DNA of 32,000 bases from Cupriavidus necator (GTDB taxonomy: Bacteria; Pseudomonadota; Gammaproteobacteria; Burkholderiales; Burkholderiaceae), in contig NZ_CP066018.1 of the NCBI RefSeq assembly GCF_016127575.1, positions 1,470,001 to 1,502,000 on the forward strand. The letters are read 5' to 3'. The first letter of the stretch is position 1, and each line of letters opens with the position of its first letter. Positions 4,524 to 29,700 of this stretch are shown here, piece by piece. Both the position numbers and the translations under genes were made by a program. Below the pieces are notes generated by a model. It was not told the origin of the DNA. It did no database searches and was given only the letters and a program-made list of their open reading frames with translations.

Positions 4524-4720
4524 TCAGGCCGGAATGGCACATAGTCGCCCACGTGCCCACTAGTTGAGCGGGGCATGATCACGACGTGCCGCTTTCGGCG
4601 CACGCCGGCCCGGCTCCGCGCGGTGAGCACGGGACTAGAGTGCGTGCAGCTTGTCGGGTTCGCTGACCTCGACTAGCCTCTATCGATGTCGATTCTTCGC
4701 TGCGCTGCGATACCCATTTG

Positions 4721-7363: not shown

Positions 7364-7448
7364 GGCGAGGGGCGTTTTTCGGTGCCCCGGACTCCCTTAC
7401 CAATTGCAACAATGGAGTCTCGCCAATTTGGCGGACTCCGTTCCGCCG

Positions 7449-10131: not shown

Positions 10132-10669
10132 CCGGCCTACATATGCGTTGCGGCATCGAGGACACATCTGGACCCAGCGCCGCGACCGCAAGATGGGACC
10201 GTGTCGCAGATCGAGCAACCGGTGCGCATGTCGCGTGAGTTCGGCCGCGACGTAGCCAACGACGAAGGAGCGCGCAGCGCGCGAAATCTAAAAAATCGGC
10301 ACGGTCCACGGCGCCGATGAAACGCTGGCCAAGAACGGGTTCGCACCGAACCGCAAGCCGGGGCAGGTCGGATCCGAGGCACGGCAGACGCGCATAAGCG
10401 GCGTCGATCTGGACGAGAGGACCTATATACTTTCGCTATGGACGTTCTAATCCAAATGGCGTGCCCCTTAGTTACCGACGCATAAGCGTGTAGGATCTCG
10501 GTATTTGCGGAGGCCGCCATTTCCGCGCTCCACGCGGCGGCTGAGTTTCTAATGCTGGGATAAGGAAATGCGAAGATTAGTCTGGCATGAATTCCCCATG
10601 CCTCCGTTTATCAAGGTTCGGAGATCGTCGCGTGCCGCTGTTATCGAGGTGCACCAACTATGAGTAGCT

Positions 10670-12972: not shown

Positions 12973-12973
12973 T

Positions 12974-15900
12974 ATGCAGAAAATATCGCGTATCTATCTG
13001 GGAAACTGCGGCTACCTGATGGCCTGGTATGACGGGTTGTTGTTCGACCTGACGGATCCGGAAACGCACCAACCGACCGACACCATCATCAACCTCGAGA
13101 ACGGAGGCGGGAAGACGTCGCTGCTCAGCCTGATCTTCTCGTGCTTTGACACGGGCCAGGACCGCTTTCTCAAGCATCTGCAAAGCAAAAACAATCATTT
13201 CTCGCAGTACTTTTCGCAAGACGGCCTGCCCGGCTTCATCCTGGTGGAGTGGGAGATGCCCTCGCGCACGGCTGGCGGTGAGCCGTACCGACTGGTCGTG
13301 GGTCAGGTGGTGTCCATCAAGGCGGGCAACGACGTGCCGGAGAGCGACCGGATGTTCTTCAGCTTTGAAGCAACAAGCGGCTTGATGCTTGAAATGATTC
13401 CCGCGCCGAAGCTCGGCACCGCCCCGGTGACATCACTGGCGGAATTCTCGCGCTGGGTACACGAAGAACAGAGGAAGCACCCCGACGTCTATGTCACCCG
13501 CAAACAAGCCGATTGGCAGCGCCACCTGCGTGAAGAGCGTCTCATCGACCTGGAAATGCTGCAGATGCAGGTCAATTTCTCCGTGCAAGAGGGCGGTTTC
13601 GATACCGGCTTCCTGAACTTTTCCAGCGAGGCGGCCTTTCTGCAGAAGTTCTTTCATCTGACGCTGGACGCACAAAGGGCCGCCGCCGTGCGCGACGCCG
13701 TCGCAGCAGCCTGCGACAAGTTACGTCGCAAGCCTCACTATCAGGCCAAGCTTACGGAGCTAACGAAGTTCCGTGCCGTGCTTCGATCCTTTGAGGAGAC
13801 AGCGCACGCCTATCGACTATCCCTGGCCGACCAGATGAGTGTGCTGGTCAACGGCGCGCGATTGGCGTTGGCACTACACGAACGGGCGAACACGCGGCGG
13901 AGCAAGCAACAGGCCGAGCTAACTTTCGAACGCGACCAGCGGGCCGTGGCGGCGACCGCCGCGTCCGACGTGCTTGGTTACAGCAGCCAAGCCGCCAGCA
14001 TGGCCAGCCTGATTCACGTGCGCGCCGTGCGCGCCGCCCTGGAGCGCACCAAGCAAGCCGCGTTGAGCCTGACAGACCTGCAAAACGATATCAAGTATGT
14101 GAGGGCTGCACGGGTACTGGCGGAAGTGGACGCCGCCGATAAGCGCTTGCAGACACTTGAGGCTCAGGCCGACCTCGCCAAGGAAGGCTTGCAGCCGTTT
14201 CGCGACCAGCTGGAAACGGAAGGCGCGCTGCTTCGCACCGCTCTGTTCAAGCACGAACAGGCCCTGCGCGAGACGCAGCGCAAAATTGAGAAGGAGTCCA
14301 TAGACCGCAACGACACAGTGACCGGGCACCGGACGGCACTTGCCGAAGACGAAAAGCGTCGGCGCACCGCAGTCAACGAACAAGCCAAGCTTACCGAGCT
14401 GGAAAAGGCCTGGGAGCGCGAGCACACTCGCATGGTCACCTCGGGGCTCCTGTCCGACGCTGGCGAAGTGACTCAAGTAGCTGTGGCGCGCTGGGGCGAG
14501 ACCGAGCAGCAGATGCGGCGAGAGGAAGCAGCCCACAAGATTGCGCAAAGCCAGCATGAACAGCAACAGGGCCACTGGAGCAGCGAGGAAGTGCGCCTGG
14601 GCAGCGAAGCAGGTCGATTCGAAGGCGAGATTCAGTCCACCGCAGACTTCATCGGCGAGGGTACCGCCGAGCGCGAGCGGCTGTCACAACTACCGGCGAT
14701 CCTGCTAGCTGTCGAATCCGACACAGCGTCTCCAGACTCCCCTGCATTGCCGTCGGTGCTCGAACGCGTAGCGGCGGCGTCCGCCTCGGAAATCTCCCTA
14801 AGCGATGTGCGCCTGGCCGAATTGCACGCGACGATGCAAGCCATCCACGAAACAGGTGTGGCTGGTAGCAGTCCAGATGTTGCGCGTGTCGTAGCGCGAC
14901 TACGTGAGGCCGGCGTGCGCTCGGCCCGCCCCTTCAACGAATACCTTGCTGACGCATTACCGGACGCGGAGCGCGCTCGTGGCTTGGTGCTGAGCGACCC
15001 GGCTCGTTTCCTGGGGGTTTCCGTTGCACAAAGTGAAATGGAAAAAGCCCGTGGCATCGAATGGCATGGCCAGAAGCTGACCCGTCCGGTGGTGGTTTCC
15101 CCCCTTGCTCTCGAATCAGCAGCTGCCGCCCCCACTCGCCTGGTGGTACCTGCAGCAAGCGACGCTGCATACAACCGGGCCGCGGCCGAGACATTGGCCG
15201 GCACCCTGTCGGAAACCATCCGCCTCGAAGAAAATCGTCGCGCCGGATATTATCAGCGCCAGACTGACGCACTGGCCGCGATGCAGGCACTCCAAACCTA
15301 TGTGCTTCGCTTTGGTGAGGGCAAACTGGCAGCGGCGAACCTCCGGCGCAATGAGCTTCAGAGTCAGCTGCGCTCCACTTTGGAGCGCAAGGAAAAGGCT
15401 CGCGAGAAGGCGGCCGCGGAAGCGGCAGAAGCAAAGATAAGCAACGAGGCCGCAGTCAAATGCGACCGCCTGGCCCTCGAAGCATGCTCCCATCTTCAGG
15501 TACTTCAACGCTTCATGGCAGAGTATGAGGCCAACCGCGAGGAGCGGCTCCTCCGTCTCGATGAGCTCGAAGTCATACTGGAAGATCTCGAGGTCCGACG
15601 CCTGGCGACCGAGGATGAAATCCAGCGTCTTGAAGACATTACGCGTGAACAGAGCAAAGTCGCCATCAAGGCCGAGAACAGCGCCGACAACCTGGCCGGC
15701 GAGCGTTCCAGAATTGAGTTCTACGACAAGACACTGGCCGCCGATGAGCATTTGAAGGCCAATCCCCGAGACCTGGAGATGCTGCGTGGGACGTACTCCG
15801 ATGCGCTGACGGTTTACAAGGCGAAGGCACAGGATCAGCTGGGTGTGCTTGAAGTGCAGATGCAGGAAGCACGCAGGCGCCGCGACGAGAAAAAGCAGGA

Positions 15901-17392
15901 ATACACCCGCGACTACCCCGGCGTCACGCGTACTCATGTAGCGCCGTTCGAGGGACAGGACCACTGTGCCATGCTGGTTGGTCTGGAAGCCAAACGTACG
16001 CTCGTCAACAAGGAACACCTGGACGCCGTTTCAGCCAAGGGCGCGGCCGAGCACGCATCAGAAGACTGGCACAAGAATAATCGCGATGTACCGCCGGCCA
16101 CTCCCGACATCGAGGCGCTGGATGCTGCTGCCCTCGATGCCCGAAAGGACGAGGCAGTGCGCATGAGTGAAGAGGCCGGCGCGCGCCAAAAGAACGCATC
16201 GGACGTGGCGGACCGGGCGCGCGGCACCGCCATGCGCCTCGGAGAAGCCGCTGGCCAGGACGACCGCCTGGCGGAATTGCTCAAGAGCACGATGAAGCTG
16301 GAGGCCACGCCGAACCCCGAACTGCTTGCACTGGAGATCGCCAGCCTGACGGGACAGCCACCAGTGCTGCTCGAACAGCTTGGCGAGTTAGTGCTCGAGG
16401 AGGACGCGAGCGACCAAGTCACACGCGCCGTCAAGAATCACGGCGCTAAATCGGGCCTATGCGACCGGGCTCGCGATAATGCGCGTACGGTTTTCGATGC
16501 GGTCAAGCTGGCCGCCGGCGACCCCGAGCTCCAGAAAGTCGAGCCGGAGCTTGCGATTGCCATGCTGGCTAACGAGTTCACAGCGGCTTGCAGCGATGCC
16601 GCCCGGCTGTTGGAAGGTCTCGAGGATCGCATTCATACCACCCAGGACAACCTGGACAAGATGCAGGCTGACTTCGATGCCTGCGTCGAGGAAATGCTGG
16701 CGCTGTCTCGCATTGCCCTGGGGTTGCTGAACTCGGCCATTGACAAGCGTGTGCCCGCCACCGCGCCGTATGTCGCAGGCAAGGCAGTCCTGAAGATGCG
16801 CGCGAACTTCGCGGCCATCAACGTCGAGAGCCGACGACAGGCGCTCACGCATTACCTGGACAGTCTGATTCAGGCTAACGTGCCTCCGGGCAAGGGCTCG
16901 GACTTAGTGGCTGAGGCCGTGCTTCGAATGTACGGCGGCCGCCCGCTGGGCCTACAGGTGCTACGCATGGTTATCGACGAAAGCCAACAGTACGTACCGG
17001 TGGAGAAGATTTCCAACTCTGGTGGCGAAGGTGTGGTGATGGCGTTGTTTCTCTACGTAGTCATCACCCAGCTACGCGCGGAGACCCAAGCCAAGCTGCA
17101 CAAGCTTGCCGGCGGCCCGCTTATCCTGGACAACCCGTTCGCCAAGGCCACCTCGCCGACCATGTGGAAGGCGCAGCGTCTGCTCGCGCAATCCATGGGG
17201 GTGCAGTTGGTGTTTGCCACTGCCATCCAGGACTACAATGCCCTGGCGGAATTCTCCGCCTTCGTCCGGCTACGACGCGCTGGGCAGAACAGCAAGACGG
17301 GGCGCTGGCATTTGGAGTCTGTCCGCTACCGCCTCAATGAGGAGATGGCCAATCCAGAGCTGGCGGCGCCTAGTACGATTGAGGCAGCCTGA
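12974..17392 (+). CDS. JetC-like SMC/MukB-like ABC ATPase (1472 aa)
   Basis: The ATG at 12974 follows a GGAG SD 7 nt upstream; the listed start at 12884 lies inside jetB. Walker A is NLENGGGKTSLL (13100-13120). About 1200 aa of heptad-like Ala/Glu/Arg/Leu-rich coiled coil follow, with a central non-coiled hinge-like segment (...VARLREAGVRSARPFNEYL...LGVSVAQSEMEKARGI...). The signature-like motif is SNSGGEG (17012-17032), and a Walker-B-like LILDNPF lies at 17120-17140. Confidence 0.8.
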   Translation: MQKISRIYLGNCGYLMAWYDGLLFDLTDPETHQPTDTIINLENGGGKTSLLSLIFSCFDTGQDRFLKHLQSKNNHFSQYFSQDGLPGFILVEWEMPSRTAGGEPYRLVVGQVVSIKAGNDVPESDRMFFSFEATSGLMLEMIPAPKLGTAPVTSLAEFSRWVHEEQRKHPDVYVTRKQADWQRHLREERLIDLEMLQMQVNFSVQEGGFDTGFLNFSSEAAFLQKFFHLTLDAQRAAAVRDAVAAACDKLRRKPHYQAKLTELTKFRAVLRSFEETAHAYRLSLADQMSVLVNGARLALALHERANTRRSKQQAELTFERDQRAVAATAASDVLGYSSQAASMASLIHVRAVRAALERTKQAALSLTDLQNDIKYVRAARVLAEVDAADKRLQTLEAQADLAKEGLQPFRDQLETEGALLRTALFKHEQALRETQRKIEKESIDRNDTVTGHRTALAEDEKRRRTAVNEQAKLTELEKAWEREHTRMVTSGLLSDAGEVTQVAVARWGETEQQMRREEAAHKIAQSQHEQQQGHWSSEEVRLGSEAGRFEGEIQSTADFIGEGTAERERLSQLPAILLAVESDTASPDSPALPSVLERVAAASASEISLSDVRLAELHATMQAIHETGVAGSSPDVARVVARLREAGVRSARPFNEYLADALPDAERARGLVLSDPARFLGVSVAQSEMEKARGIEWHGQKLTRPVVVSPLALESAAAAPTRLVVPAASDAAYNRAAAETLAGTLSETIRLEENRRAGYYQRQTDALAAMQALQTYVLRFGEGKLAAANLRRNELQSQLRSTLERKEKAREKAAAEAAEAKISNEAAVKCDRLALEACSHLQVLQRFMAEYEANREERLLRLDELEVILEDLEVRRLATEDEIQRLEDITREQSKVAIKAENSADNLAGERSRIEFYDKTLAADEHLKANPRDLEMLRGTYSDALTVYKAKAQDQLGVLEVQMQEARRRRDEKKQEYTRDYPGVTRTHVAPFEGQDHCAMLVGLEAKRTLVNKEHLDAVSAKGAAEHASEDWHKNNRDVPPATPDIEALDAAALDARKDEAVRMSEEAGARQKNASDVADRARGTAMRLGEAAGQDDRLAELLKSTMKLEATPNPELLALEIASLTGQPPVLLEQLGELVLEEDASDQVTRAVKNHGAKSGLCDRARDNARTVFDAVKLAAGDPELQKVEPELAIAMLANEFTAACSDAARLLEGLEDRIHTTQDNLDKMQADFDACVEEMLALSRIALGLLNSAIDKRVPATAPYVAGKAVLKMRANFAAINVESRRQALTHYLDSLIQANVPPGKGSDLVAEAVLRMYGGRPLGLQVLRMVIDESQQYVPVEKISNSGGEGVVMALFLYVVITQLRAETQAKLHKLAGGPLILDNPFAKATSPTMWKAQRLLAQSMGVQLVFATAIQDYNALAEFSAFVRLRRAGQNSKTGRWHLESVRYRLNEEMANPELAAPSTIEAA

Positions 17393-18387
17393 TGCCGGCG
17401 CAATTTTTCGCCAGACTGAAGGCATCTCCACGCAAGAGGGTGGAGCTTGTGCAGCTCAAGCAGTTGTACTTCGAGCTGTATCCGGAGATTCAGAACCACC
17501 CCGAACGTAGCCGCATGTTGCTGCAGGCCCTTCAGGCGCTGGCCGCAACCGGCGCCATAATGCTGCCAGCTCGCGCCAGTTGGGAGAAAGTCGGCCAGCC
17601 GGCGTTGCCGATGTGGATCAAACTCGTTCGCACGCACAATGAGGCGCCGAAGGAGGATTTCTCCAAAATTCCCTGGGTGCCAGAGCTGGGCTTCTGGCCT
17701 GAGCTAACGAGCGCCCAACTCGCCGCGGCAAAGTGCATTAACGAGTTCCTGCTTCAACGCCGCGGAAACCTCCAGCGAATCCCCATCAAGGAACGTTCGC
17801 TTGAGATCTTTGGAGACGAGAAGCGGCTCGACGCTATGAGGCAGGGCAACACACTGTTCTCAGGCCGATTGTCGCTTGATACGCTAGGTGCGTTCACCGT
17901 GCCTCTACCGCTTCCGTACCGACCGGCACCCGTATCGGGCAAACCGCTGCTCGTCGTCGAAAACCACAACAGCTACTGGAGCTTCGGTGAGTGGAATCAG
18001 CGAGCCCTACGATATTCAGCGGTCGTCTACGGTGCCGGGGAGGCATTTCGCAGCACGGGAGCAGCCCTAAGACAGGTTCTACATGAAGTGAAGGGCACCG
18101 ATGTCCTGTATCTAGGAGACCTGGATCCTAAAGGCATCGGCATTCCGCTTGACTTTAACCGCTCGTCGGCGAGTGATGAGCCCAAGGTTGCGCCAGCAAT
18201 GGAGTGGTATGAGTGGCTGTTGTCGCATGGGTTTCGGCGAAAGAAGGCTGTTTGCACAAACGCTCACCCGCAATCCGCCATTGATTGGCTCGGAGAAACC
18301 TTAGGCGAGGAACTCGCGGAGCTATGGCGGGGAGAGTGCTGGATTCCACAGGAGGCTTTGGGTTTCGAGCAGCTAAGCGCTCTGTGA
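17392..18387 (+). CDS. JetD-like Toprim nuclease subunit (DUF2220-like), short form (331 aa)
   Basis: The ATG shares 1 nt with the jetC stop (TGATG). KERSLEIFGDEKRLDAM, the Toprim Glu in LLVVENHNSYWSF (E at 17959-17961), the DxD in VLYLGDLDPKGIGIP (18115-18129) and a C-terminal IPQEAL all match the JetD/MksG C-terminal domain as I recall it. Confidence 0.8.
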   Translation: MPAQFFARLKASPRKRVELVQLKQLYFELYPEIQNHPERSRMLLQALQALAATGAIMLPARASWEKVGQPALPMWIKLVRTHNEAPKEDFSKIPWVPELGFWPELTSAQLAAAKCINEFLLQRRGNLQRIPIKERSLEIFGDEKRLDAMRQGNTLFSGRLSLDTLGAFTVPLPLPYRPAPVSGKPLLVVENHNSYWSFGEWNQRALRYSAVVYGAGEAFRSTGAALRQVLHEVKGTDVLYLGDLDPKGIGIPLDFNRSSASDEPKVAPAMEWYEWLLSHGFRRKKAVCTNAHPQSAIDWLGETLGEELAELWRGECWIPQEALGFEQLSAL

Positions 18388-18601
18388 GCGGGATCGCAAA
18401 AGGAAGCGCATGCTTGGCGGCGACCATTGCGCGCGATAGTATTGCCTTCGCCATTTCTGGCAAGTCCAGACATAACGAATGAAACCAGGCGCCCGGCCCG
18501 GCGCCGGGATGGTCGACCGCCATTTTGGGCGGAAAGGTCTGCGTGATCGAACAAGTCGTCATCGTCGGCTTCGGCTGCTTGGGGCGTTTAGTGCGCATGA
18601 A

Positions 18602-19996
18602 ACGCCGCTCCACCTTCAATATAACGCCTGGCTCCGTGAGTACTTCGCCGCGATCAGTGGATGGGCGTTGAGGGAGTATTGAGGCTTCTGCGTCCGTTAT
18701 GTCGTGCCGATCCAGTGGCTGGGCGGCCAGCCGGGGACCACCGCCACCGGCTATACAGCCGAGGAGATCCGTGGCCGCCCGGGCTATAGCGTCAGCGGCG
18801 CAAGCAATGCGGCGGGGCTGGTCGACCGCCTGCGGGCGTGGCCGCCATGGGCAGCTGAAGCGCCAGGCGGAGGAAGTCATCCGGCACCAGGCGAATTTCG
18901 ATGCGCTCACGGAGCTGCCCAACCATCGGGTACCGTGGCGCGGCTGGCCGGCGACGAGTTCACCGTGATCCTGCCCGCGGTGGGCGATGCCGGCGTTGCC
19001 GGGGGCATTGCCGAGGCGATCCTGGAGCGGATTGCCGCGCCCTACCGCCTGGCCGGCGAGCTGGTGGTGGTGTCGGCCAGCATCGGCGTGGCGACCTGGC
19101 CTAAGGACGCCGACAACGCCGAGGACCTGCTGGTGTGCGCCGACCAGGCGATGTTTGCCGCCAAGGAGGAGGGCCGCAATCGCTGGAAGGTCTTCACCCA
19201 GGCGCTGCTGCAGGCGGAGAGGGAGCGCCTGCGCATCACGCAGGACCTGCGCACGGCGCTGGCGTCCGGGCAGTTCGCGCTGCACTACCAGCCTATTGTC
19301 AATCTGCGCACGGGCAAGGTCTGCAAGGCCGAGGCCCTGATCCGCTGGGACCATCCGGTGCGCGGGCCGATCCACCCGGCCGATTTCATTGCCGTTGCGG
19401 AGGAATCCGGCCTCATCATCGACATCGGCCGCTGGGTACTGACCGAAGCGCTGGACCAGCTTGCGCGCTGGCAGGTGCTGCTGGGCAAGGGCTTCCAGAT
19501 CTCGGTCAACAAATCCCCCGTGGAGTTCTGCGCGCCTGCGAGCGGGCCCGAGTCCTGGTCCAGCATGATCGAGCGCAGGAACGTGCCGGTGGGCAGCCTC
19601 GTCATCGAGATCACCGAAGGCTCGCTGATGGAGCAGAACGCCGATGTCATGGACCAGCTATCCCGCTTCCAGGCGGCCGGCATCGAGATCGCGCTCGACG
19701 ACTTCGGCACCGGCTACTCGTCCTTGTCGTACCTGCGGCGTCTGGACATTGACTACATTAAGATCGACCAGTCCTTCATCCGCTCGCTGACGCGGGGCCC
19801 GGACGACGTCGCCTTGTGCCACGCCATCATCAGCATGGCGCATGCACTGCGCATCCGCGTGATTGCCGAGGGCATCGAGACCGAGTCGCAGCGCGACATC
19901 CTGCTGGCTGCCGGCTGCGACTACGGGCAAGGCCACTTCTTCTGTCCGCCGGTTGAGGCCAGCGCGTTCGAGGCCTACGTGAGCGCCGTGACTTGA
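18602..19996 (+). repeat. Direct repeat, copy 2 (patchwork, internally deleted) of 4179..7363
   Basis: See copy 1. Three intervals of copy 1 are absent here: ~4260-5796, ~5891-6045 and ~6111-6296. The last 1067 nt are colinear with 6297-7363. Confidence 0.85.
18704..19996 (+). pseudogene. Truncated paralog of the GGDEF-EAL gene: no sensor, TM or most of PAS; half a GGDEF domain; an apparently intact EAL domain
   Basis: A 430-aa open frame starts at GTG. Its N-terminal ~75 aa mix in-frame and out-of-frame pieces of the PAS region; the native frame KRQAEEVIRHQANFDALTELPN appears in the other ORF, 18699..18968. From VARLAGDEF onward I count 7 aa differences from copy 1 over ~355 residues. All EAL motifs are retained. 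It may still be expressed as an EAL-only protein. Confidence 0.65.
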
Positions 19997-20921: not shown

Positions 20922-22037
20922 ATGCAATCCCTGTCTGTGGTCATGGAGAACTATCTGGCAACTAAGTCCGCTCTTAGCGGTAAAGCTCGAAACGCTAATA
21001 CGCCGGATCAGATAAGTATCAGCAAGACGCTACCTCAGTTCTTCATTGATATATTGGAGAGATTGGAGCGGCGTGGAGCTTTCAAGGTCGAAGGTTCCTA
21101 TGGTCAAGGGAATATCGCCGGCGTTCCTTGGATTGGCGTATTCAACCTCGAGATCACAACATCAGCACAAAACGGGTACTACATCGTCCTTCTCTTTTCA
21201 GAGGACATGAAGTCGTGTTACCTGAGCCTCAATCAAGGGGTTACAACTCTCAAGAATGCCTATGGGGTAGAGGTGGCACTTCACAAGCTTAGGGGGGCAG
21301 CCGAGCTAGCCTTAGAGGCCTTTGTGCCGGCCGCTGGCACGGTTAAAGGACCAATCGACCTAAAGGCCAGCAGGGCTTTGGGTAAAGGCTACGAGCGAGG
21401 TGCAATTGAGAGCTTTCGATACGATTTCTCCGCACTGCCAACGCCCGACAGCCTAGAATTAGACTTCAGATCACTGCTGGGGCACTACGATACGCTGGCG
21501 AATAAGGTCGGTCCGAGTCTGCAGGCATTGGTGCCAGTCAATGAAACCCAGTTTCAAAAAGCAGTGCTTGAAAAAGCAACAGCGACCACAAAAAAAGATT
21601 GTCCGCCATTTGTCGAACCTCCAGGAGGTGTACCCGTCTTGCCGAAGCGGGGAAACGGCGGCTCGTGGAAGTATCCACGAGATCCATTGGTAGCAGCTGA
21701 GGCAGTAAAGAGTGCAGAATACCGGTGCGAGCTATTCCCCGAGCACCAAACATTCAAATCCAGCTCGAAGAATGTACCGTACGTCGAGGCGCATCACCTT
21801 ATCCCCTTAAGCAGGCAGGCCGATTTTCAATTCTCTCTCGACATTACAGCGAATATCATTGCACTTTGCCCGACTTGTCATCAGCGCTTGCACCATGGGC
21901 ATGCATCCGAAAGGCGCAGTCCTTTGCGACGGCTACTGTCACAACGAAAGGATCGGCTCCAGGAGAAGCAAATTTTCATCGAGGAGGAAATATTGCTTCA
22001 CATTTACAGCAATGACATACTCGATAACGAAGATTGA
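20922..22037 (+). CDS. Type IV (modification-dependent) restriction endonuclease: MrcB_N (DUF3578) reader domain fused to an HNH nuclease
   Basis: The N-terminal EGSYGQGNIAGVPWIGVFNLEITTSAQNGYYIVLLFSEDMKSCYLSLNQGVT is the hallmark DUF3578/MrcB_N motif. The C-terminal YVEAHHLIPLS...ALCPTCHQRLHHG is an HNH motif. A purine-rich stretch (AAAGAAAG) precedes the ATG. Confidence 0.85.
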   Translation: MQSLSVVMENYLATKSALSGKARNANTPDQISISKTLPQFFIDILERLERRGAFKVEGSYGQGNIAGVPWIGVFNLEITTSAQNGYYIVLLFSEDMKSCYLSLNQGVTTLKNAYGVEVALHKLRGAAELALEAFVPAAGTVKGPIDLKASRALGKGYERGAIESFRYDFSALPTPDSLELDFRSLLGHYDTLANKVGPSLQALVPVNETQFQKAVLEKATATTKKDCPPFVEPPGGVPVLPKRGNGGSWKYPRDPLVAAEAVKSAEYRCELFPEHQTFKSSSKNVPYVEAHHLIPLSRQADFQFSLDITANIIALCPTCHQRLHHGHASERRSPLRRLLSQRKDRLQEKQIFIEEEILLHIYSNDILDNED

Positions 22038-22140
22038 ACGCAAGAGCTGGAGATTACCCGTCAGCAACTCTTTTTGAAGCTCGCCGGCTTTGCCTCCAAA
22101 CAACGGGATAGCATTGACCCTCTGAATATATCAATAGTTA

Positions 22141-23022
22141 ATGACATCGACCATTCAACTTACGTTAGACGGTTCTTTTTTGCGTGACAACAATCACGTT
22201 TCGCTCCGCGTCCTTGGGCGATCGATGATCTCTATTCAAGCCGCCGCTGACCGCGCTTATCTTGACATAAAATATGGCAATATCTGGAAGCATGCGCGAT
22301 TGCCAATTGCCTTCTACGATGACGCAGATTTTATAGTTGGGGACCCGGAAAAGGGAAGCTATATAATAAAGTTCCTCTCTGAGCAAGGAGAAGCCATTGT
22401 TAAGCGACTACGACAGGCAATTGCAGACCCCTATCGTTCGGCCATAGAGGGTGGGGAGCAAGAGATATTCTCGATTAAACGGCAGATCGAGGCGCGAAAA
22501 AATCAAGTAGATAACGTAATTTTGGTTCCGCAGACATTTGACGAGTTCTTGCAAGCCCCCGATGAATTGGCCACCCGAGCTTATGGTGACAAATCGATTA
22601 ATAAGAATATTGATCATATGCTTAGCCCGGTAAGGAAGGATCCGGATGCAATTCTAAAGATTTCCCTAAAGCCCAATTACCGCGAACGCACGGAAACATT
22701 CACTTTTACCCAGAAGGAGGCAATCGCTTTCAAGAAGGTGGTCAGTCAGCGGCAACTTGGAAATCCTGTGATCTACCATGGCAGACTAAGAGCACTGGAT
22801 CGGGGGCACAATCAAAAGGCAAACTTCAAAGGCAAATTCATTAATGCGGCGAATGATCGCGACCTGGCGTTATTCATCCAAAGCGAGCAGGATTACTCGG
22901 ATCTAGTCCCCTATATGGATCGGGAGAATCTCACAATTGTGGCATGTCCTATTGTGGAGTACGACTCGTTCGATCCCGTCGCGGGAGATATTCAATTCGT
23001 GAAGATTCTTACTGATGGCTGA
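22141..23022 (+). CDS. Hypothetical soluble protein (293 aa), no recognisable family
   Basis: This is a long ORF in a lower-GC block, with normal amino-acid composition and no TM segments. I see no P-loop, HNH or PD-(D/E)xK motif. Its stop overlaps the start of the next gene (ATGGCTGA). Confidence 0.7.
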   Translation: MTSTIQLTLDGSFLRDNNHVSLRVLGRSMISIQAAADRAYLDIKYGNIWKHARLPIAFYDDADFIVGDPEKGSYIIKFLSEQGEAIVKRLRQAIADPYRSAIEGGEQEIFSIKRQIEARKNQVDNVILVPQTFDEFLQAPDELATRAYGDKSINKNIDHMLSPVRKDPDAILKISLKPNYRERTETFTFTQKEAIAFKKVVSQRQLGNPVIYHGRLRALDRGHNQKANFKGKFINAANDRDLALFIQSEQDYSDLVPYMDRENLTIVACPIVEYDSFDPVAGDIQFVKILTDG

Positions 23023-23710
23023 GAAATCGATCGACAATCTTCGAGAGCAGTGCCTTGAGCTGCTACTAAATATTGTGCCAATCAGTCAGATTGGCTTCAT
23101 TTTTGTTACCGCCGTCGTTTTTCAGAGACTAGCCGAGGGCTCTGGTTCATCGGCATTTGGCGCCTTATCAGGGTTGGGCCTGAAGAATTTGTTTGCCATC
23201 AGCGATGGGTTGTTTTGGAGTGTCGGCATCGTCCTAGTGGGTGCGTGTTTCTTCTTAGCGCTAATCAACACCTACATATTAAAACTCGCACTACGCAAAT
23301 CATTTGAATCGAGCCGGATATCGGAGCAACTGTTACGCTGGATCTCTGTCGCAGCGAAGTCTATGGAGGGTTTGGATAAAGATGATCGCGGACCAATTCG
23401 AGATTCAATCAGCACCGAATTAACCAGAAGATTAAAAAAATATCATTCAAAGCGAATGCTGAGCGAGTCCCTCTTTTCGATTTCAGCAGTTATAGTTTAC
23501 GCATCCATTTATCTGATATTTATTAACCACTCAAATCTTTCCAAAATAGAATTTTCTTACCTAGAGTTGATCGTTGGCTCCGTTAGCACGCTTTTGTGTT
23601 TTTTTTGCCACCGGAACTCCATTCGATATGCACTATCGAGGGTGGTGCCTTTGCAAGTGTGCTTGACGGCCATGACCGGTGAGCTCGCTTTTTCCATCGA
23701 TGCTGACTAA
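23015..23710 (+). CDS. Hypothetical integral membrane protein (231 aa, ~4 TM helices with a charged central loop)
   Basis: The hydrophobic segments are IVPISQIGFIFVTAVVFQRLA, LFWSVGIVLVGACFFLALINTYIL, LFSISAVIVYASIYLIFI and LELIVGSVSTLLCFFC. The loop between TM2 and TM3 is charged (RKSFESSRISEQLLRW...DKDDRGPIRDSISTELTRRLKKYHSKR). It overlaps the upstream gene by 8 nt. Confidence 0.7.
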   Translation: MAEKSIDNLREQCLELLLNIVPISQIGFIFVTAVVFQRLAEGSGSSAFGALSGLGLKNLFAISDGLFWSVGIVLVGACFFLALINTYILKLALRKSFESSRISEQLLRWISVAAKSMEGLDKDDRGPIRDSISTELTRRLKKYHSKRMLSESLFSISAVIVYASIYLIFINHSNLSKIEFSYLELIVGSVSTLLCFFCHRNSIRYALSRVVPLQVCLTAMTGELAFSIDAD

Positions 23711-23770
23711 TTCCTCTCGATTTCATTCGGCTATGCTCTATCAGCAGCACCTTTCCAGTGCCTGGATCAG

Positions 23771-23810
23771 AACGGCGTAAGGCCACATAACCCCGCGCCG
23801 TTTTTGCTTT
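23771..23810 (+). terminator. Probable intrinsic terminator after the 22141-23710 gene pair
   Basis: The stem is AACGGCG...CGCCGTT (7 bp) with a long ~18-nt loop, followed by TTTGCTTT. It is weaker than the terminator at 20018. Confidence 0.4.
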
Positions 23811-24030
23811 CTGCGCCAGACGCCGCCTTCGCTCATCAGACAAGCGGCTGCAGGCGGTCGCCCGTTCTGGTCGAGCCGTTGATTTGATCGGAAACAGCTG
23901 GTCGTAGAGACCAATGTTTTCGGGGACGACGCCTATTGACCCAGCTCAAACCAGCTTTCGACTCCCCACCAAAGCAGTATTTACCAAAAATACCAAATCA
24001 GCACATCTTTGCTGTTTTTGGAGGGGACAA

Positions 24031-25149
24031 ATGCCTTTGGACACCAATGAACGGTTCAATCACATCCATTACGTTCCAATTCTCAAATGGAGGCAAGGCG
24101 AGTACCAGGCACTATGGCGCTTGAGCGATGCCGCCAAGCAATGGATAACACCGCTACTAGAAATTCCTACTGAGCCATGGGATTTCGAAACAGAAACGCC
24201 CGCAAAATCTTTAGATGAGCATCTCGAGCGCTTTGGAAACCGCCTCAAAAGTAAATGGGACACTCGTCGATGCTTTATCGACTCATGCTACATCGATGGT
24301 GTCGCACAAATGTCAACAGGACAGCATCACCTCGAGTTCCTGTTCGAACAAGCTCGGAATGAAGGAGCTTCACCGATACCGGTTACTGGGCTTGGCCGCC
24401 ATCCAGACTATGACGCAGCGGTACACAACATCGTTGCTCAAGATCAGCGGGGCGCGTGCGTTCGTCTTTCCGCTGAGGACTTTAGTGCCTCTATTTTGAA
24501 TGACCTTCAAAACTTGTTTGCTCGGCTAAATGTGGGGCCGCCCGACTCACACCTCGTTATAGACATGGCGGAGGACATCAGCGGCTCACCGGTCGCGCAA
24601 GGTCTCGCATGGAAGGCACTGCTTCAACAGACGCCCTGGCTAAACGACTGGAAATCTGTAACAGTTGCCGCAACGGCGTTTCCCAGCGCTCTACCAGCGG
24701 CACAGTTCCGTCCGCATGGACTCACACCAAGAACAGAGTGGAACGCATATAACGCCCTGTTGACAAACTTGGGTGGCCTGCGCATTCCAACTTTTGGGGA
24801 CTACTCGGTTTCACACCCACAGACCGAGCTACTCGATCCGCGTGTGCTCGATCCAAACGCGAAGATCAAGTACACCGTTGATGGCGAATGGCTCGTTCAC
24901 ACTGGTGCCCAAGTGAAGAAGCATGGTAGGGGTCAATTTCAAGGACTATGCCAAGAACTGATTGCCAACCCGTCAGCAGCTTTCCCAGGACCGACTTACT
25001 CATGGGGTGATGCATATATCCATGGGTGCGCAAGTGGCACCGAAACGACGGGCGGCACATCGACATGGCCTTCGGTCGGCAACAACCGACATATCACCAA
25101 GGTCATCAGGGATGTCGCCACGTTGTTCGGGTCTTCAACGATTCCCTGA
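24031..25149 (+). CDS. Beta-protein-family-like protein (PF14350-like; related in motif to 'sce7725 family')
   Basis: The internal ATG at 24031 follows GGAGGGG 5-7 nt upstream, so the listed start at 23914 is unlikely. The N-terminus HYVPILKWRQGEYQALWRLSDAAKQWITPLLEI matches the YvPiLK.k.gE..AL....i.PLiEi motif I recall for the Beta_protein family. A later ...TFGDYS... motif also fits. Confidence 0.6.
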   Translation: MPLDTNERFNHIHYVPILKWRQGEYQALWRLSDAAKQWITPLLEIPTEPWDFETETPAKSLDEHLERFGNRLKSKWDTRRCFIDSCYIDGVAQMSTGQHHLEFLFEQARNEGASPIPVTGLGRHPDYDAAVHNIVAQDQRGACVRLSAEDFSASILNDLQNLFARLNVGPPDSHLVIDMAEDISGSPVAQGLAWKALLQQTPWLNDWKSVTVAATAFPSALPAAQFRPHGLTPRTEWNAYNALLTNLGGLRIPTFGDYSVSHPQTELLDPRVLDPNAKIKYTVDGEWLVHTGAQVKKHGRGQFQGLCQELIANPSAAFPGPTYSWGDAYIHGCASGTETTGGTSTWPSVGNNRHITKVIRDVATLFGSSTIP

Positions 25150-25687
25150 CCAGCTGCCGAAGCTCACTAAGTGGCACCAAGGCCGCGGCAATCTCATACA
25201 ATTCGCGACGGTTGCCGCGGAGCCTTCGTTTTTCAACGCCTCGCTCCTCCAGGATCTTGGTTACCTCCGGACGCCACAGTAGGTGGGCGACATGAAAGGC
25301 CGACACCGAAGGATTTGCTCCAACTGCGCGGTGTGTTTCGATTGATACCGCCCCTCGCTTGCCCACGCTTGCCACCTTAATCCCCCACCATGGTGGCAAT
25401 ATTGACTCCGCCGACCCTAGGTGATGCTCTCCCACCACCAAGGTCGCCCTATCCATTGCTTTCGAATAGGCTTCAACTTGCGCTGGTAAGCGTTCCAGCG
25501 TGTCAGCATCGCTTTTCAGTTCGTAGCCGTGCAGAAATCCATTCACTACTGCAATGTCAACACGGCACAAGCCGTGCTGCAGGCCGAGCTCTTCAACAAC
25601 CAGCACATTGGGGTCAGCAACATGTTCGGCGAGCACCTTCCGGAATACGGCCGCCCGAACATCGCGATCTCTAGTCTTGTTGGTCAT
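25106..25687 (-). CDS. PD-(D/E)xK-fold protein resembling the 'sce7726 family' (MmcB-like)
   Basis: The ATG at 25687 is preferred over the listed TTG at 25726. RDVRAAVFRKVL...VVEELGLQHGLCRVDIAVVNGFLHGYELKSDADTLERLPAQVEAYSKAMDRATLVV has the D...E-x-K core (RVDIA / YELK) and matches my memory of sce7726-family sequences. Its 3' end overlaps the convergent Beta-like gene by 44 nt. Confidence 0.55.
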   Translation of the reverse strand: MTNKTRDRDVRAAVFRKVLAEHVADPNVLVVEELGLQHGLCRVDIAVVNGFLHGYELKSDADTLERLPAQVEAYSKAMDRATLVVGEHHLGSAESILPPWWGIKVASVGKRGAVSIETHRAVGANPSVSAFHVAHLLWRPEVTKILEERGVEKRRLRGNRRELYEIAAALVPLSELRQLVRESLKTRTTWRHP

Positions 25688-25833
25688 AGTGGAGCTGCGC
25701 ACGGATCGCGCCAGCGATGTGCTCAATAGTTCGCACTCGAAGAACGACAGACATTTTACTCTGTCGGCTACGAGTGTGCGTCTAGGGGCATTGCTTACAA
25801 CAAGCCTTTTGCTCGCTCTTCAGCAGCCACGGA

Positions 25834-25960: not shown

Positions 25961-27313
25961 TCAGCCAACAGCTGACGACTTCGCGGCTTCCACCGGATCT
26001 CTGTCAGGAAACACAGTAATAAATGGAGCGCCGTCAGGAACCAAAAGCCGGCGGGACTTAAGACAGAACGGCAATACCCATAGCCGCAGGCCCTCTACTT
26101 TGGGGAACTCGAACACCGGGACTGGCCGCTCAAACGAGGCGGTTTTCGGGTAGATCAAGACGACATCCCCCCTACCGCTCAGGTAGCTCTGACCATAGGC
26201 CTGCAGTTGGTAGAAGTCACTTTGCGAGAGGCCGTACTTGTCCGTGCCATTCGCTTTCATCCCGTCCAGCAGTTTCCACTTGGTATCCAGTACCAGCAAG
26301 TCCCGGTCTGCATTCCGGATCAGCAAATCGGGCTTCAGCCGGAACCAGTTCTGTTCACGATGGCGAACCAGGTGATGACTACGAGCCTGTGATTTCAGGA
26401 TCAGCGGTCGGGCCAGCTGTTTCGCCAGGTGCTTGGCGACGAATGCCTCGAATACAGCCTCCATCGGGAACAGCATCGACGGCGCACAGTGCGCGCCGGC
26501 GCCAGTCAAAGGCGATTCCTCGTCGAGGATGAGCCGCGCCCAGGCCAGCGCGTCAGCGTAATAACCCATGCCACGGTCCAGCCTCACCCGCTGAAAGTCG
26601 ATCTGAGGCTGTGCGGAAACTGGTACCTCCGCGAACACGAACGCCAGCTCGCGGGCCAGTTGGTTGAGCTGCGAAGCAGATAACTCCAATACACGCCGCA
26701 ATGCGGCATGCAAAAGGCGATTCTCTGGACGGTCGATTGTGAACTCGTCGTGGTCGGTGAAGAATCGGTCGGCCCGATACAGGTTTTGCTGCAAATGCGG
26801 CGCGATCAACAGCTTACCCCTCAGGGCATAGAGGTTGTCTTGGCGGCTTGAATAGTCGCTGCGCAGCCCACGCTTTACGATGTGGTCAACGGCGCGCAGG
26901 AATTCTGCAACGAAGACCTCCAACAATGGCATCCGCGCTGCCGAAATGTTGGCGCTGTCGGTTTTAACGTGGCGGAAGCCCTGGAGGCAGCAGAGCATTT
27001 CAATCAGAAGCTTACGCGCCTCGACGGCGCCGCCGCCGATCGCCTTGCCGACCTTGGGCAACACCTCGATCTGGAAGCCGTCCGGTGCGCGGATCACGCC
27101 AACAAAACTGGTCACTTGAACGACACGACGCCCGCGGCGCTGGGCCAGGCGCAGCCATGCCGCCTCCCCTTGCTCGGCAGCCCGCAAGCACTGGTCTTCA
27201 AGCCACCCGTAGACCGCATCCGGGACGGCGTGCAAGCCCTCGGTACCTGCAACGCCCGCCGTCGCCGCGATCAGCGTCTCGAATTCGAAAATCGTGATGC
27301 CGTTCACTTGCAT
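25961..27313 (-). CDS. mcrC: McrC-like nuclease subunit
   Basis: The ATG at 27313 (MQVNGITIFEFE...) lies 8 nt after the McrB stop; the listed TTG at 27325 is an alternative. VTSFVGVIRAPDGFQIEVLPKVGK is the typical McrC N-terminal pattern. The C-terminal PD-(D/E)xK core is KPDLLIRNADRDLLVLDTKWKLL. Confidence 0.8.
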   Translation of the reverse strand: MQVNGITIFEFETLIAATAGVAGTEGLHAVPDAVYGWLEDQCLRAAEQGEAAWLRLAQRRGRRVVQVTSFVGVIRAPDGFQIEVLPKVGKAIGGGAVEARKLLIEMLCCLQGFRHVKTDSANISAARMPLLEVFVAEFLRAVDHIVKRGLRSDYSSRQDNLYALRGKLLIAPHLQQNLYRADRFFTDHDEFTIDRPENRLLHAALRRVLELSASQLNQLARELAFVFAEVPVSAQPQIDFQRVRLDRGMGYYADALAWARLILDEESPLTGAGAHCAPSMLFPMEAVFEAFVAKHLAKQLARPLILKSQARSHHLVRHREQNWFRLKPDLLIRNADRDLLVLDTKWKLLDGMKANGTDKYGLSQSDFYQLQAYGQSYLSGRGDVVLIYPKTASFERPVPVFEFPKVEGLRLWVLPFCLKSRRLLVPDGAPFITVFPDRDPVEAAKSSAVG

Positions 27314-27321
27314 CCCGAAGA

Positions 27322-29700
27322 TCAAGTCGACAAGGTCTGGTAGATGCCGATGTAGGCATCCAAATTCGAAAACGCGGCCTCCTGCAACGCGTACCGGCGC
27401 TTGGAGCCGTAGCTGTCCAATCCGTGGTCACTACCGAATAGGCGAGCCAGATCGTCCTCGTGATCCTGACTTTCCGCCACGAACTGTGCAGCTGCCGGCT
27501 TCTGATTGTCGGCGAGAACAAGACGAATCTTCTGCCAGTCCTCGAAGAAGTACTCTTCGAGCAGGGGCAGGATGCGCGTGCTGAACACCTGCTGCAGCGC
27601 CACCAGTCGTTCGTCGCCGTCAGGGAACTTAGCCAACGTCGTGAAGTATGCGTGGCCGATGCAATGGTCGCGGTCGTAGAGTGCCTCGACGCGCTGGTTG
27701 ATCGCATCGAGCATGCGCGGTACGTCGATCACCTGCTCGCCCAGGGTGACCCGCAGGCCCGCAAGCGGCGCGCCCGATTCATCGCGAGCATCCGGCATCA
27801 CCGGCACGAATTCGAACCGGCGACGGAGCGCGGTATCCAGTAGCGCCAGGGAGCGGTCTGCCGTGTTCATCGTGCCAATGATGTCGACATTCGATGGCAC
27901 AGAGAAGCCGTCGCCGGACGGCAAGGTCACCGAAACGGCGTTGTCGGCGCCTTCTCGCTTGTCAGGCTCGATCAAGGTGATCAGCTCGCCGAATATCTTG
28001 CTGATGTTGCCCCGGTTGATCTCGTCGATCACCATCGCGAATCGCTGATCCGGTGCCGATCGTGCTCTACGGCACAGTTCCTTGAAGACGCCCGCGCGAA
28101 TCTCGTACTGAATTTCGCCAGCCTCTGCGTCGCCATTGAGAACCGGCCGGAGCCCCTCGACGAACTCCTCGTAACCGTAAGACTGGTGGAAGGTGACGAA
28201 ACTGTAGCGCTGGACCTTACCTGATGCCGGCGCACCGATTTGGTAGGCCTTCACGGTTTCGATCACGTCCGCAACGGCTTCCTTCCAGTCGCCTGCAAAC
28301 TGCCAGACAGAGTCCGTTGTCTTGTCGAACACGGCGGGCGCGAGACGCATCTTGGTGTTGACGGTGTGTGAATCCTCGACCGTATGGTGTTGCAGTGTGC
28401 CCCAGAGCGTTTGCCTCACGTTCTGCTTGCGCCCCTTTGCTGCTGCAATTGCCTGAATGAACGGGTGCTCATATAGCTGACCCACTTTGGCCTTGCCGCC
28501 CAACTCATAGAGCGCAGCGGCGGCGCCTTCCCACCATGTCAGGGTAGCAATCCGAGTAGCAATCAACTGTTCTCGCCATTCCGCGTTGGACACGGCGGTC
28601 ATGGCCTGCTCGTACTCCCGCTTGAGCAATTTCGACAGCTCATAGGTCTTTCCCGTGCCAGGCGGACCGTAATAGATGCGGTTGATGGGTTGCCTCACCT
28701 CATCGTTATCGGCTGGCTCCTCCTCATCGGAGTCCTCTTCGGGCTCCACCGGGTCGTCTCGCAGTTCATCGGGCCACAGACCTGGACGCTCCGTGTCGAG
28801 CACCAGCCAGTCATCGAGTGAATCTCGCTCAGCCGACAGGGCTGCCTCGATATTCGCGACCAGCCGCTCCGTCAACGGCTCGCGGTGAAGCTTGGGCACC
28901 TCGCCCAGTTCCCGCGTCCATGAGATCTTCCGGATCCGGGTGCCCCGAATCACGCCGAGCACACCGACGGCGCGTTCGCTGCCAGGATTCTTGCGGCCAA
29001 AGCGCACCTGGACACCCTTGCCCATGTGCCACCAATCTAGACCGGCGGCGTGAACGACTCGCGCCAACCGACAGAATAACGCCTTGTCCTGGGCAGACCA
29101 TGAGGCGCGGAAGGTCCTGAACACTGGCTTGCCGTCGAAGTGCTTGAGCAGGTCCTCGTCGCTCAGCTTCTTGCCCAGGTTCAGCTTGACGACGACCTCG
29201 TCGTAGCGCAGCTTAAAGTTGCGGATCGCTTCAACACTCCACGCAACTAGTTGGTCCAGCGACTTCCCCAGTCCATCGGACGCTGGCAGTGTAGCGATGA
29301 AGGGGGACGTGTTGTTGTAGGCGCCACGCAGTGCTAGATAGGCCTTTCTCGTCGCGTCCAATTCGTCGAGCCCAACGGTATCGATCTTGACTACGAAGCC
29401 GTCATCGGCGCCGATGCCAACTGTGTAAGCCAACTCTTTCGGCGCCTCAGATGAAGGGTAGATTTTGGCCCAGTTGTAGCTGGCAAAGTTGTTGCCCTGG
29501 TTGGTCGGGCGCTTACGAATCTCGACGCGCCCGACAGGGAACAACTCGGCCTTAACCTTGTCCGCCCACGCCTCCGTCACCTCGTAGGCCTTCTTCAGAT
29601 CTTCATAAGCGCGGTTCTGCTCGGGGTTGGACTCGTCACGCTTCTGCCCCTTCCACTTGTTCAGCAGCTTGAAGTAGTCACTGGTGAAATAGTCAGCCAT
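27322..29700 (-). CDS. mcrB: McrB-family AAA+ GTPase with a non-canonical ~330-aa N-terminal region and an insertion inside the AAA+ domain
   Basis: Walker A is YYGPPGTGKTY. The McrB hallmarks are FHQSYGYEEFVEG, MVIDEINRGNISKIFGELITLIEPDKR and IIGTMNTADRSLALLDTALRRRFEF. An acidic linker (DDPVEPEEDSDEEEPADNDE) precedes the AAA+ domain. About 130 aa separate Walker A from the FHQSYGYEEF motif. Confidence 0.85.
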   Translation of the reverse strand: MADYFTSDYFKLLNKWKGQKRDESNPEQNRAYEDLKKAYEVTEAWADKVKAELFPVGRVEIRKRPTNQGNNFASYNWAKIYPSSEAPKELAYTVGIGADDGFVVKIDTVGLDELDATRKAYLALRGAYNNTSPFIATLPASDGLGKSLDQLVAWSVEAIRNFKLRYDEVVVKLNLGKKLSDEDLLKHFDGKPVFRTFRASWSAQDKALFCRLARVVHAAGLDWWHMGKGVQVRFGRKNPGSERAVGVLGVIRGTRIRKISWTRELGEVPKLHREPLTERLVANIEAALSAERDSLDDWLVLDTERPGLWPDELRDDPVEPEEDSDEEEPADNDEVRQPINRIYYGPPGTGKTYELSKLLKREYEQAMTAVSNAEWREQLIATRIATLTWWEGAAAALYELGGKAKVGQLYEHPFIQAIAAAKGRKQNVRQTLWGTLQHHTVEDSHTVNTKMRLAPAVFDKTTDSVWQFAGDWKEAVADVIETVKAYQIGAPASGKVQRYSFVTFHQSYGYEEFVEGLRPVLNGDAEAGEIQYEIRAGVFKELCRRARSAPDQRFAMVIDEINRGNISKIFGELITLIEPDKREGADNAVSVTLPSGDGFSVPSNVDIIGTMNTADRSLALLDTALRRRFEFVPVMPDARDESGAPLAGLRVTLGEQVIDVPRMLDAINQRVEALYDRDHCIGHAYFTTLAKFPDGDERLVALQQVFSTRILPLLEEYFFEDWQKIRLVLADNQKPAAAQFVAESQDHEDDLARLFGSDHGLDSYGSKRRYALQEAAFSNLDAYIGIYQTLST

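Follow-up and report, generated by a model that had tools for sequence, protein, structure and literature searches.

A mobile two-gene module of filamentous phages and bacterial defence islands, combining a soluble protein of unsolved fold with interchangeable membrane partners, as a candidate phage-exclusion system

In a 32,000-nucleotide stretch of the Cupriavidus necator H16 genome (chromosome 1, contig NZ_CP066018.1, positions 1,470,001 to 1,502,000; hereafter the window, in whose own numbering its positions are given), two adjacent genes, here called A and B, encode a soluble protein and an inner-membrane protein inside a defence island. Our analysis demonstrates that A and B together make up a module of two genes that is self-contained and moves horizontally, and which integrative filamentous phages (inoviruses) and chromosomal defence islands carry as accessory cargo. 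Since a constant soluble core, interchangeable membrane partners, carriage by phages and defence islands, and recent acquisition together make up a pattern typical of phage-exclusion or abortive-infection systems, we give an even chance to the reading that the module is such a system, with a logic like that of the Rex proteins of phage lambda and no homology to RexAB or Kiwa.

The module is evident from the pairing of the genes. Forty loci were fetched which, together with the window, gave 36 non-redundant loci distributed over Burkholderiales, Gammaproteobacteria, cyanobacteria, Desulfobacterota, Bdellovibrionales and a Bacteroidales metagenome-assembled genome (MAG). A adjoins a membrane protein gene on the same strand in the window and in every fetched locus (40/40; 36/36 non-redundant), which bears out the conserved co-occurrence on which an earlier note on this stretch, made from its letters and reading frames, had staked its proposal of an anti-phage system. 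The same note had regarded a transport operon context as a sign to the contrary; no transport or metabolic operon was seen around the pair, and the annotated neighbours were mostly defence or mobile-element genes, with housekeeping genes at the edges of the islands. The membrane partners fall into three mutually unrelated families, none of which has a Pfam family. The first, B1, to which the window B belongs, comprises proteins of about 217-233 amino acids with four transmembrane helices encoded downstream of A (24 non-redundant loci), the second, B2, proteins of about 245-255 amino acids with two transmembrane helices, also encoded downstream of A (8 loci), and the third, B3, multi-spanning proteins of 122 amino acids encoded upstream of A (4 loci). 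In most loci the spacing from A to B1 lies between -14 and +4 nucleotides, such that the genes overlap or are separated by small gaps. Pairwise identities of A and B1 are correlated (Spearman 0.58, Mantel p = 0.001), and B1, with a mean identity of 0.21 versus 0.41 for A, evolves about two times faster. In the tree of A the proteins partnered with B2 form one clade and those partnered with B3 another, each nested among B1 lineages, so that B1 is the ancestral partner and was replaced twice. The module thus consists of a constant A core and an interchangeable membrane partner. Decaying copies were found as well: in Robbsia andropogonis A is truncated at its 5' end and B2 is cut short (L018, 4464-5775), and in a deltaproteobacterial MAG A is split by a frameshift downstream of an intact B3 (L022, 10133-10980).

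Carriage by filamentous phages is seen in 8 of the 36 loci (L001, L004, L023, L024, L030, L031, L034 and L040), in which genes for an integrase, DUF4224, Rep, secretin, Zot, DUF2523 or pIII-like proteins adjoin the pair, and these inovirus-linked pairs belong to two divergent subfamilies of A. In B. cepacia and Trinickia the gene order is sspB, tRNA-Thr, A, B, integrase, Rep ... Zot, and the order tRNA, A, B, integrase was found at two different tRNAs (tRNA-Thr and tRNA-Lys). At the tRNA-Lys of P. bryophila (L004), A, B, int and Rep lie between perfect 51-nucleotide attachment (att) repeats (9749-9799 and 16983-17033), and the 7.2-kb element that these bound holds A, B, int, DUF4224, Rep and an IS21 copy, with no morphogenesis genes. 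Since the att repeats enclose the pair and the morphogenesis genes are gone, the pair lies inside the integrated element and has outlived the phage. Both att copies come from this locus only, as a search of L023 and L001 found no att repeats within the fetched 20 kb. All 32 aligned members of the A family match phrog_28486 (function unknown; E down to 4.5e-71), and A homologs are present in IMG/VR proviruses. Since no homolog of A turned up by tblastn in GenBank phages or PLSDB plasmids, the PHROG members must derive from predicted prophages. The window A is sister to the inovirus-borne copies in the A tree, and no phage genes stand beside the window pair.

The phage association also invites a reading without defence, in which the pair is a phage moron or an accessory of the life cycle, acting for instance on the replication or extrusion of the inovirus or on the envelope physiology of the host, and was later left in islands. 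In line with this reading, the pair directly follows the secretin gene on the same strand in L034 and in L040 of U. curvum (one-strand order Rep_trans ... pIII-like, DUF2523, Zot, secretin, A, B2), it stands by the repressor or integrase end in other loci, and inovirus accessory modules such as KKP can regulate prophage development (PMC11341870). However, 28 of the 36 loci have no inovirus genes nearby, the pair stands among defence and toxin-antitoxin (TA) genes in cyanobacteria, Desulfobacterota and Gammaproteobacteria, and the three inovirus lineages carry it at different positions (integrase end, repressor end, or after the secretin), as expected of cargo and not of a core function. With only 8 of 36 loci and no fixed position, the pair does not belong to the inovirus core gene set, and we regard the moron reading as distinctly improbable. 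TA, superinfection-exclusion and defence genes are documented among the cargo of inoviruses (PMC6813254, PMC11341870).

Two of the inovirus loci showed further features. In L040 a direct repeat (7792-7854 and 9768-9840) brackets only the A-B2 pair at the inovirus end; it is composed of a 14-nucleotide and a 50-nucleotide segment with a perfect 31-nucleotide core, spans about 65-70 nucleotides, matches neither a tRNA nor an Rfam RNA, and is followed by seven tandem copies of a 70-nucleotide unit (9869-10459). This repeat may represent a secondary att site or a cassette boundary. Repeats flanking the pair were considered as a general cassette signature and rejected, being present in L040 only. 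The inovirus prophage of B. cepacia has at its far end (L023, 20500-20882) a gene for DUF4238, a domain that is part of a known defence gene of P4-like hotspots, and therefore both ends of this prophage may carry defence cargo.

Outside the inoviruses the pair recurs in defence-rich surroundings. In the window these comprise Wadjet, type IV, McrBC and type I systems. The Ralstonia locus L026 has a resolvase, ParB, SRA-HNH, the pair and a DEAD/ResIII helicase beside gyrB, L027 (R. solanacearum) a NERD-UvrD helicase, RelB/YafQ and MqsA, L036 (Alkalispirillum) an OLD-like nuclease and HigBA, L037 (Alloalcanivorax) a helicase-PLD protein, HipA and a CBASS system with SMODS and SLATT, and L039 (Herbaspirillum) gyrB, the pair, HNH and SIR2. 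Among 125 neighbouring open reading frames (ORFs) scanned in 20 further loci there were integrases, a resolvase, a transposase, Mrr, ResIII, McrB-type AAA_5, MzaA, AriA, AbiEii, BrxH, PsyrT and matches to MADS/PDC models. Recurring beside defence or mobile genes in unrelated genomes, the pair is, in the operational sense, cargo of defence islands and mobile genetic elements. The region directly downstream of dnaA-dnaN-gyrB was in addition observed to be a recurrent variable island in Burkholderiales (L003, L026, L039 and, by locus-tag numbering, the window), in which the A/B pair is found with type IV enzymes (HNH, SRA-HNH, McrBC), helicases and SIR2.

In the window itself both ORFs, their 8-nucleotide overlap and the lower-GC block described by the earlier note are all present (Table 1). 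A and B are, by the evidence of their reading frames and homologs, real genes and not chance ORFs. The deposited H16 annotation shortens A to 280 amino acids (TTG start) and B to 157 amino acids, with loss of the first two transmembrane helices. Since homologs align from residue 1 for both long ORFs, the 293- and 231-residue versions are the better gene models, and full-length 231-residue homologs of B exist. By gene counting between McrBC (H16_A0008-9) and Wadjet (H16_A0017-20), A is probably H16_A0013 and B probably H16_A0012. The overlap (ATGGCTGA) suggests translational coupling, and the two-gene unit is probably closed by an intrinsic terminator, in which a GC-rich stem is followed by UUUUUGCUUUCU. 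Folding of 23760-23815 gave -18.5 kcal/mol (z = -2.33, matched by 7/200 shuffles) with a U-run next to it, in support of the terminator that had been predicted there. A second terminator hairpin predicted after the preceding HNH gene was not supported, the folding energy in this intergenic region being -7.2 kcal/mol with z = +1.0, no better than shuffles. A consensus terminator scan recovered neither the post-pair nor the post-HNH terminator; the former was missed by this simple scan because of its long loop. The pair's own promoter presumably lies within the same intergenic region, in which a consensus promoter scan found none; elsewhere the pair occurs with no HNH gene upstream. The GC content of 0.46-0.47 over 22001-24000, versus 0.60-0.67 for most of the window, is consistent with recent acquisition of the pair by a host of about 60-66% GC.

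Protein A belongs to a family of 53 clusters at 90% identity and 166 at 50% identity; the latter were obtained in an exhaustive HMMER search of 1.84 billion representatives, 151 of them with E <= 1e-10. Family members are nearly all 285-297 amino acids long and show no domain fusions. The absence of any recognisable family or motif in A or B, as perceived in the earlier note, was confirmed by searches of Pfam, NCBIfam, PADLOC and solved structures: neither protein matched Pfam, NCBIfam or PADLOC (PADLOC-DB of 2023, with nothing for A or B at E <= 1), 32 A members searched against Pfam at E <= 10 gave only DUF7946 (2 members, E = 1.7e-4) plus noise, and in a search of all PDB sequences (E <= 10) the A profile found nothing but Hop1 and a coat protein. 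The AlphaFold2 model of A (pLDDT 90.9, pTM 0.85) predicts a new alpha/beta N-terminal part, a helical middle and a C-terminal OB-like barrel (residues ~204-289). Invariant residues are concentrated in two clusters, one being YGDxSIxK in the helical middle (148-155) and the other lying in the OB part (R217, D220, N235, P270, E273, G282 and D283), which bears LRxLD and CPxxE...GD motifs. Foldseek of the model against the PDB returned no match at E <= 0.001 and no global match (TM-score ~0.2). Its partial matches recur to OB folds (Mycoplasma SSB, RPA, Stn1/Ten1, LysRS-N, eIF5A and HIN domains) and fit the beta1-3/alpha/beta4-5 topology of the C-terminal part. On the strength of this model we are confident that A would represent a fold not seen in solved structures that ends in an OB-like barrel. 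In a Foldseek search of BFVD the sole significant full-length relatives were three uncharacterised phage proteins, A0A8S5T657, A0A8S5QA00 (labelled DUF6575-containing) and Q6NE06 of Leptospira phage LE1 (E = 1e-10 to 3.5e-9, probability 1.00), with modest TM-scores of 0.32-0.47 and 10-13% identity.

For the window B, hydropathy predicts four transmembrane helices with both termini inside, and the topology of the family agrees with the four-helix membrane protein described earlier. The protein has an N-terminal cytoplasmic amphipathic helix (KEQ/KYxE), a cytoplasmic helical insert of about 55 amino acids (93-148), which is rich in K and R across the B1 family (mean 12.5 K+R), and a C-terminal tail with a conserved P212. 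The best-conserved segments of B1 are the cytoplasmic N-helix and C-tail, and this conservation in the cytoplasmic parts therefore fits contact with A. Word-index searches with B were weak (5, then 11 clusters), and for this reason its conservation was established by locus translations and profile-profile comparison. Distant B1 proteins that are as little as 11-17% identical to the window B are yet homologous to it (hhalign 98.5%, E = 1.5e-15, 210 columns), and 10/16 B-type members match phrog_31922 (function unknown; E = 1.2e-29). ExbB, the best PDB match of B (E = 0.7), was rejected as evidence of a relationship. Neither B nor B2 and B3 gave an above-threshold match to transmembrane effector families of the CBASS/Pycsar type (S-2TM, S-4TM, PycTM, SLATT), the sub-threshold matches among them being PycTM (E = 0.25) and SieB (E = 0.013), and no nucleotide cyclase adjoins the pair in the annotated loci.

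Taken as a phage-exclusion or abortive-infection system, the module might work as follows. A would be a cytoplasmic sensor or regulator for a cue that arises from infection, which might be a nucleic-acid or protein ligand of its OB domain; its action would then run through the cytoplasmic N-helix, loop and C-tail that are conserved in the membrane partner, and the latter would be the effector that collapses membrane integrity or energisation. A bolder version, which we hold to be improbable, takes A and its partners for a hitherto unnamed family of immune or exclusion systems that filamentous phages disseminate and in which the OB-like domain of A detects single-stranded DNA, or a phage single-stranded-DNA-binding or replication protein, from inoviruses, other single-stranded DNA elements or conjugative DNA and gates B1, B2 or B3, so that the module would have been a weapon of inter-inovirus competition that was later domesticated in chromosomal islands such as the gyrB-proximal one of C. 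necator H16.

Several points weigh against a defence role. We infer the defence function, the sensor and effector roles, the ligand and the membrane disruption, and for function the argument is one of guilt by association throughout. The tally of defence neighbours is qualitative, and ordinary housekeeping genes also occur in some of the neighbourhoods. The A family is rare, with its 166 clusters only, and no catalytic or known sensor motif was recognised in A or B. Since A is near-neutral (pI ~6.2, median of the OB region 6.6), nucleic-acid binding by A is a hypothesis that its charge does not indicate. The AlphaFold2 model of B is all-helical and of only moderate confidence (pLDDT 65.7), and a Foldseek search of the PDB with it brought up no significant match and no pore or channel homolog. 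Full-text literature searches found no description of such a system, with the limit that PADLOC-DB dates from 2023 and a later naming is possible. Finally, a TA or addiction role would leave identical genomic signatures.

In such an addiction module, the chief competitor of the exclusion reading, the membrane protein would be the toxin and A its neutraliser, the pair would stabilise the inovirus prophage or island, and phage defence would be a side effect. The overlapping two-gene layout, the site beside the integrase of an element with att boundaries, and the persistence of the pair where the prophage has decayed to a remnant are as this explanation would have it, and the replacement of the partners of A resembles inovirus TA pairs, which shuffle partners between unrelated families (PMC6813254). 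A precedent is PD-T4-10, a TA-type defence made up of two overlapping ORFs whose functions are unknown (PMC9519451). However, the size of A (293 amino acids), its better conservation (0.41 versus 0.21) and its domain of a ligand-binding type are unusual for a simple antitoxin, no helix-turn-helix or other autoregulatory DNA-binding domain was detected in A by Pfam (window protein and 32 members), and the membrane gene comes first in the B3 loci. We therefore judge a plain addiction role unlikely, with the reservation that TA and abortive-infection roles are not mutually exclusive.

The preferred exclusion reading draws on the likeness to RexA/RexB of phage lambda, likewise a prophage-encoded two-gene unit of a soluble protein of about 30 kDa and an inner-membrane protein with four transmembrane helices (PMC11077077, PMC12894663). 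The logic proposed for RexAB, in which a cytoplasmic sensor activates a membrane effector and leads to abortive exclusion, includes Rex-like systems of actinophages and RexABpp of P. putida (PMC11077077, PMC12894663). RexA and RdgC were nevertheless absent from the PDB profile matches of A (E <= 10) and from the 50 Foldseek matches listed, and A, with its OB-like C-terminal barrel, differs from RexA, which has split globular and dimerisation domains and is RdgC-like (PDB 8TWQ). B resembles RexB in topology only (four transmembrane helices, adjacent gene), having 231 amino acids with a 55-residue cytoplasmic insert versus 16 kDa for RexB. The carriers are filamentous phages for A/B and lambdoid or actinophage prophages for Rex, and, unlike RexAB, the A/B module has three unrelated forms of membrane partner.

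Kiwa is likewise composed of two genes, with the four-helix transmembrane protein KwaA and the DNA-binding KwaB of about 300 amino acids (DUF4868) in a membrane-associated complex (PMC11785009), and it suggests a reversal of roles. The membrane protein would then sense envelope perturbation at phage attachment or DNA entry and recruit or release A, whose OB-like domain would bind the invading DNA and block replication or expression, with no cell death. In addition to the precedent of a four-helix membrane protein acting with a soluble DNA-binding protein (PMC11785009), this explanation would account for an OB-like domain in the conserved component and for the large conserved cytoplasmic elements of the membrane partner, and the association with single-stranded DNA phages would suit a DNA-binding effector. 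It is set back by the lack of homology to KwaA and KwaB (PADLOC, DUF4868, PDB fold), by a charge of A that is not basic, and by the exchange of a sensor among three unrelated families around a constant effector, which is unexpected since known modular systems usually vary the effector; we consider it quite unlikely. A and B had no PADLOC Kwa match at E <= 1 and no DUF4868 was found in the window A or 32 family members; the gene order is reversed relative to Kiwa except in the B3 loci, and the fold of A is unrelated.

Other known systems were also compared. TA and defence cargo of inoviruses (PfiAT of Pf4, KKP of Pf6 and the TA sets of Roux et al. 2019) is found, like the A/B pair, at variable prophage ends and also outside prophages among mobile-element and defence genes, and the TA sets shuffle partners between unrelated families as A does with its membrane partners (PMC6813254, PMC11341870, PMC12328805). 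The A/B pair differs from this cargo in that it has no kinase, phosphatase, ParE or RelE domain and has one integral membrane component. DUF6575 is named as a domain of one validated PD defence system of Vassallo et al. 2022 (PMC9519451). The sole link of A/B to it is the structural match to the BFVD protein so labelled; no DUF6575 match was found in 32 A members (Pfam, E <= 10) and no PADLOC PD model matched. The immediate neighbour of the pair in the window is a gop-beta-cII / PD-Lambda-2 type unit, in which Beta matches PD-Lambda-2_C and the 'beta' model and sce7726 the 'cll' model. A and B match neither PD-Lambda-2_A nor PD-Lambda-2_B (HigB-like and HTH-peptidase, respectively; PMC9519451), and the terminator separates the pair from Beta. 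A three-gene unit with Beta / PD-Lambda-2 was rejected, as neither Beta nor sce7726 was found with the pair in the loci searched for them (L001-L022).

The earlier impression that the pair is undescribed agrees with the outcome of these searches, which returned no family, no tool call and no description in the literature. In the published analysis of H16, PADLOC, DefenseFinder and REBASE made no call on the genes of the pair, and its supplement has no called gene between McrBC and Wadjet (PMC12645576). The genes around the pair have all been targeted or discussed already, and the pair itself was mis-annotated and ignored by these tools (PMC12645576). The island that holds the pair also limits the genetic tractability of C. 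necator H16, which is used as an industrial chassis. The architecture is known in kind, and both proteins and the inovirus vehicle are new. If confirmed, the module would add a new protein-family pair to the defences that combine a soluble sensor with a membrane effector, and an unusual one, with a constant component of unsolved fold, a membrane component that was twice replaced by unrelated proteins, and filamentous phages as a main vehicle. Little of the accessory gene content of filamentous phages has been explored, although it influences virulence, biofilms and the competition between phages.

Table 1. Coordinates of the A/B pair, its putative signals and its immediate neighbours in the window
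Feature	Position	Strand	Description or basis
Gene A	22141..23022	+	293-amino-acid soluble protein; ORF
Gene B (type B1 partner)	23015..23710	+	231-amino-acid inner-membrane protein, four predicted transmembrane helices; ORF
A/B overlap, 8 nucleotides	23015..23022	+	B start codon inside 3' end of A; sequence
Probable intrinsic terminator after pair	23768..23812	+	folding versus shuffles
HNH-to-A intergenic region, 103 nucleotides	22038..22140	+	sequence
MrcB_N+HNH fusion	20922-22037	+	profile scans
Beta_protein (PD-Lambda-2_C / P4 'beta' models)	23914-25149	+	profile scans
sce7726 ('cll' model; cII-like)	25106-25726	-	profile scans
McrC	25961-27325	-	profile scans
AAA_5, McrB-like	27322-29700	-	profile scans

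The neighbours of the pair in the window are those that had been described, with the type IV gene (MrcB_N-HNH) on one side and Beta/sce7726 and McrBC on the other. The adjacency of the HNH gene raises the question of a three-gene system, in which A and B would cooperate with this type IV-like nuclease. In 4 of the 36 loci, all of them Burkholderiales, an HNH enzyme whose C-terminal domain is related stands at or near the pair (the window, 103 nucleotides upstream; L039, 66 nucleotides downstream; L002; L026). However, the remaining 32 loci, among them every inovirus-borne, gammaproteobacterial and cyanobacterial one, have no HNH gene; where the gene is present, it differs in position and in the reader domain at its N terminus (MrcB_N, SRA or other); and MrcB_N-HNH by itself already shows the full architecture of a type IV enzyme. 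The conserved module does not include the upstream HNH gene, and we consider a joint system very improbable.

The MrcB_N+HNH gene, which has the full architecture of a type IV modification-dependent restriction enzyme, is probably H16_A0014 by gene counting. Deletion of this gene (H16_A0014 by the inferred mapping) in a wild-type background did not improve electroporation (PMC6011247). According to a later study, H16 devoid of type I and McrBC still restricts mis-methylated DNA by a system that it left unidentified (PMC12645576), and MrcB_N+HNH is an obvious candidate for this residual restriction.

On the other side of the pair, the Beta and sce7726 genes are convergent, with 3' ends that overlap by 44 nucleotides. 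Since no gop, HigB-like or HTH-peptidase partner lies alongside them in the window, they appear to represent an incomplete or variant gop-beta-cII / PD-Lambda-2-type unit. The window additionally holds a YgjP peptidase and the C-terminal part of a type I HsdR, and upstream of the pair a Wadjet-like JetABCD block, which the published H16 analysis names Wadjet type III (PMC12645576). A dCache-PAS-GGDEF-EAL protein is encoded at 4718-7363 (+), and its last 360 residues are repeated at 97% identity in a truncated copy at 18704-19996 (+), so that a GGDEF-EAL direct repeat of about 1.1 kb flanks a block with PAAR, cell-wall-hydrolase and Wadjet genes (~7400-18700). This bracketing repeat suggests that the block was inserted, or is excisable, by recombination within the GGDEF-EAL gene. 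Between the GGDEF-EAL gene and Wadjet lie a PAAR-domain protein (8442-9613, +) and then a weak cell-wall-hydrolase-like ORF, which are probably an effector pair of a type VI secretion system.

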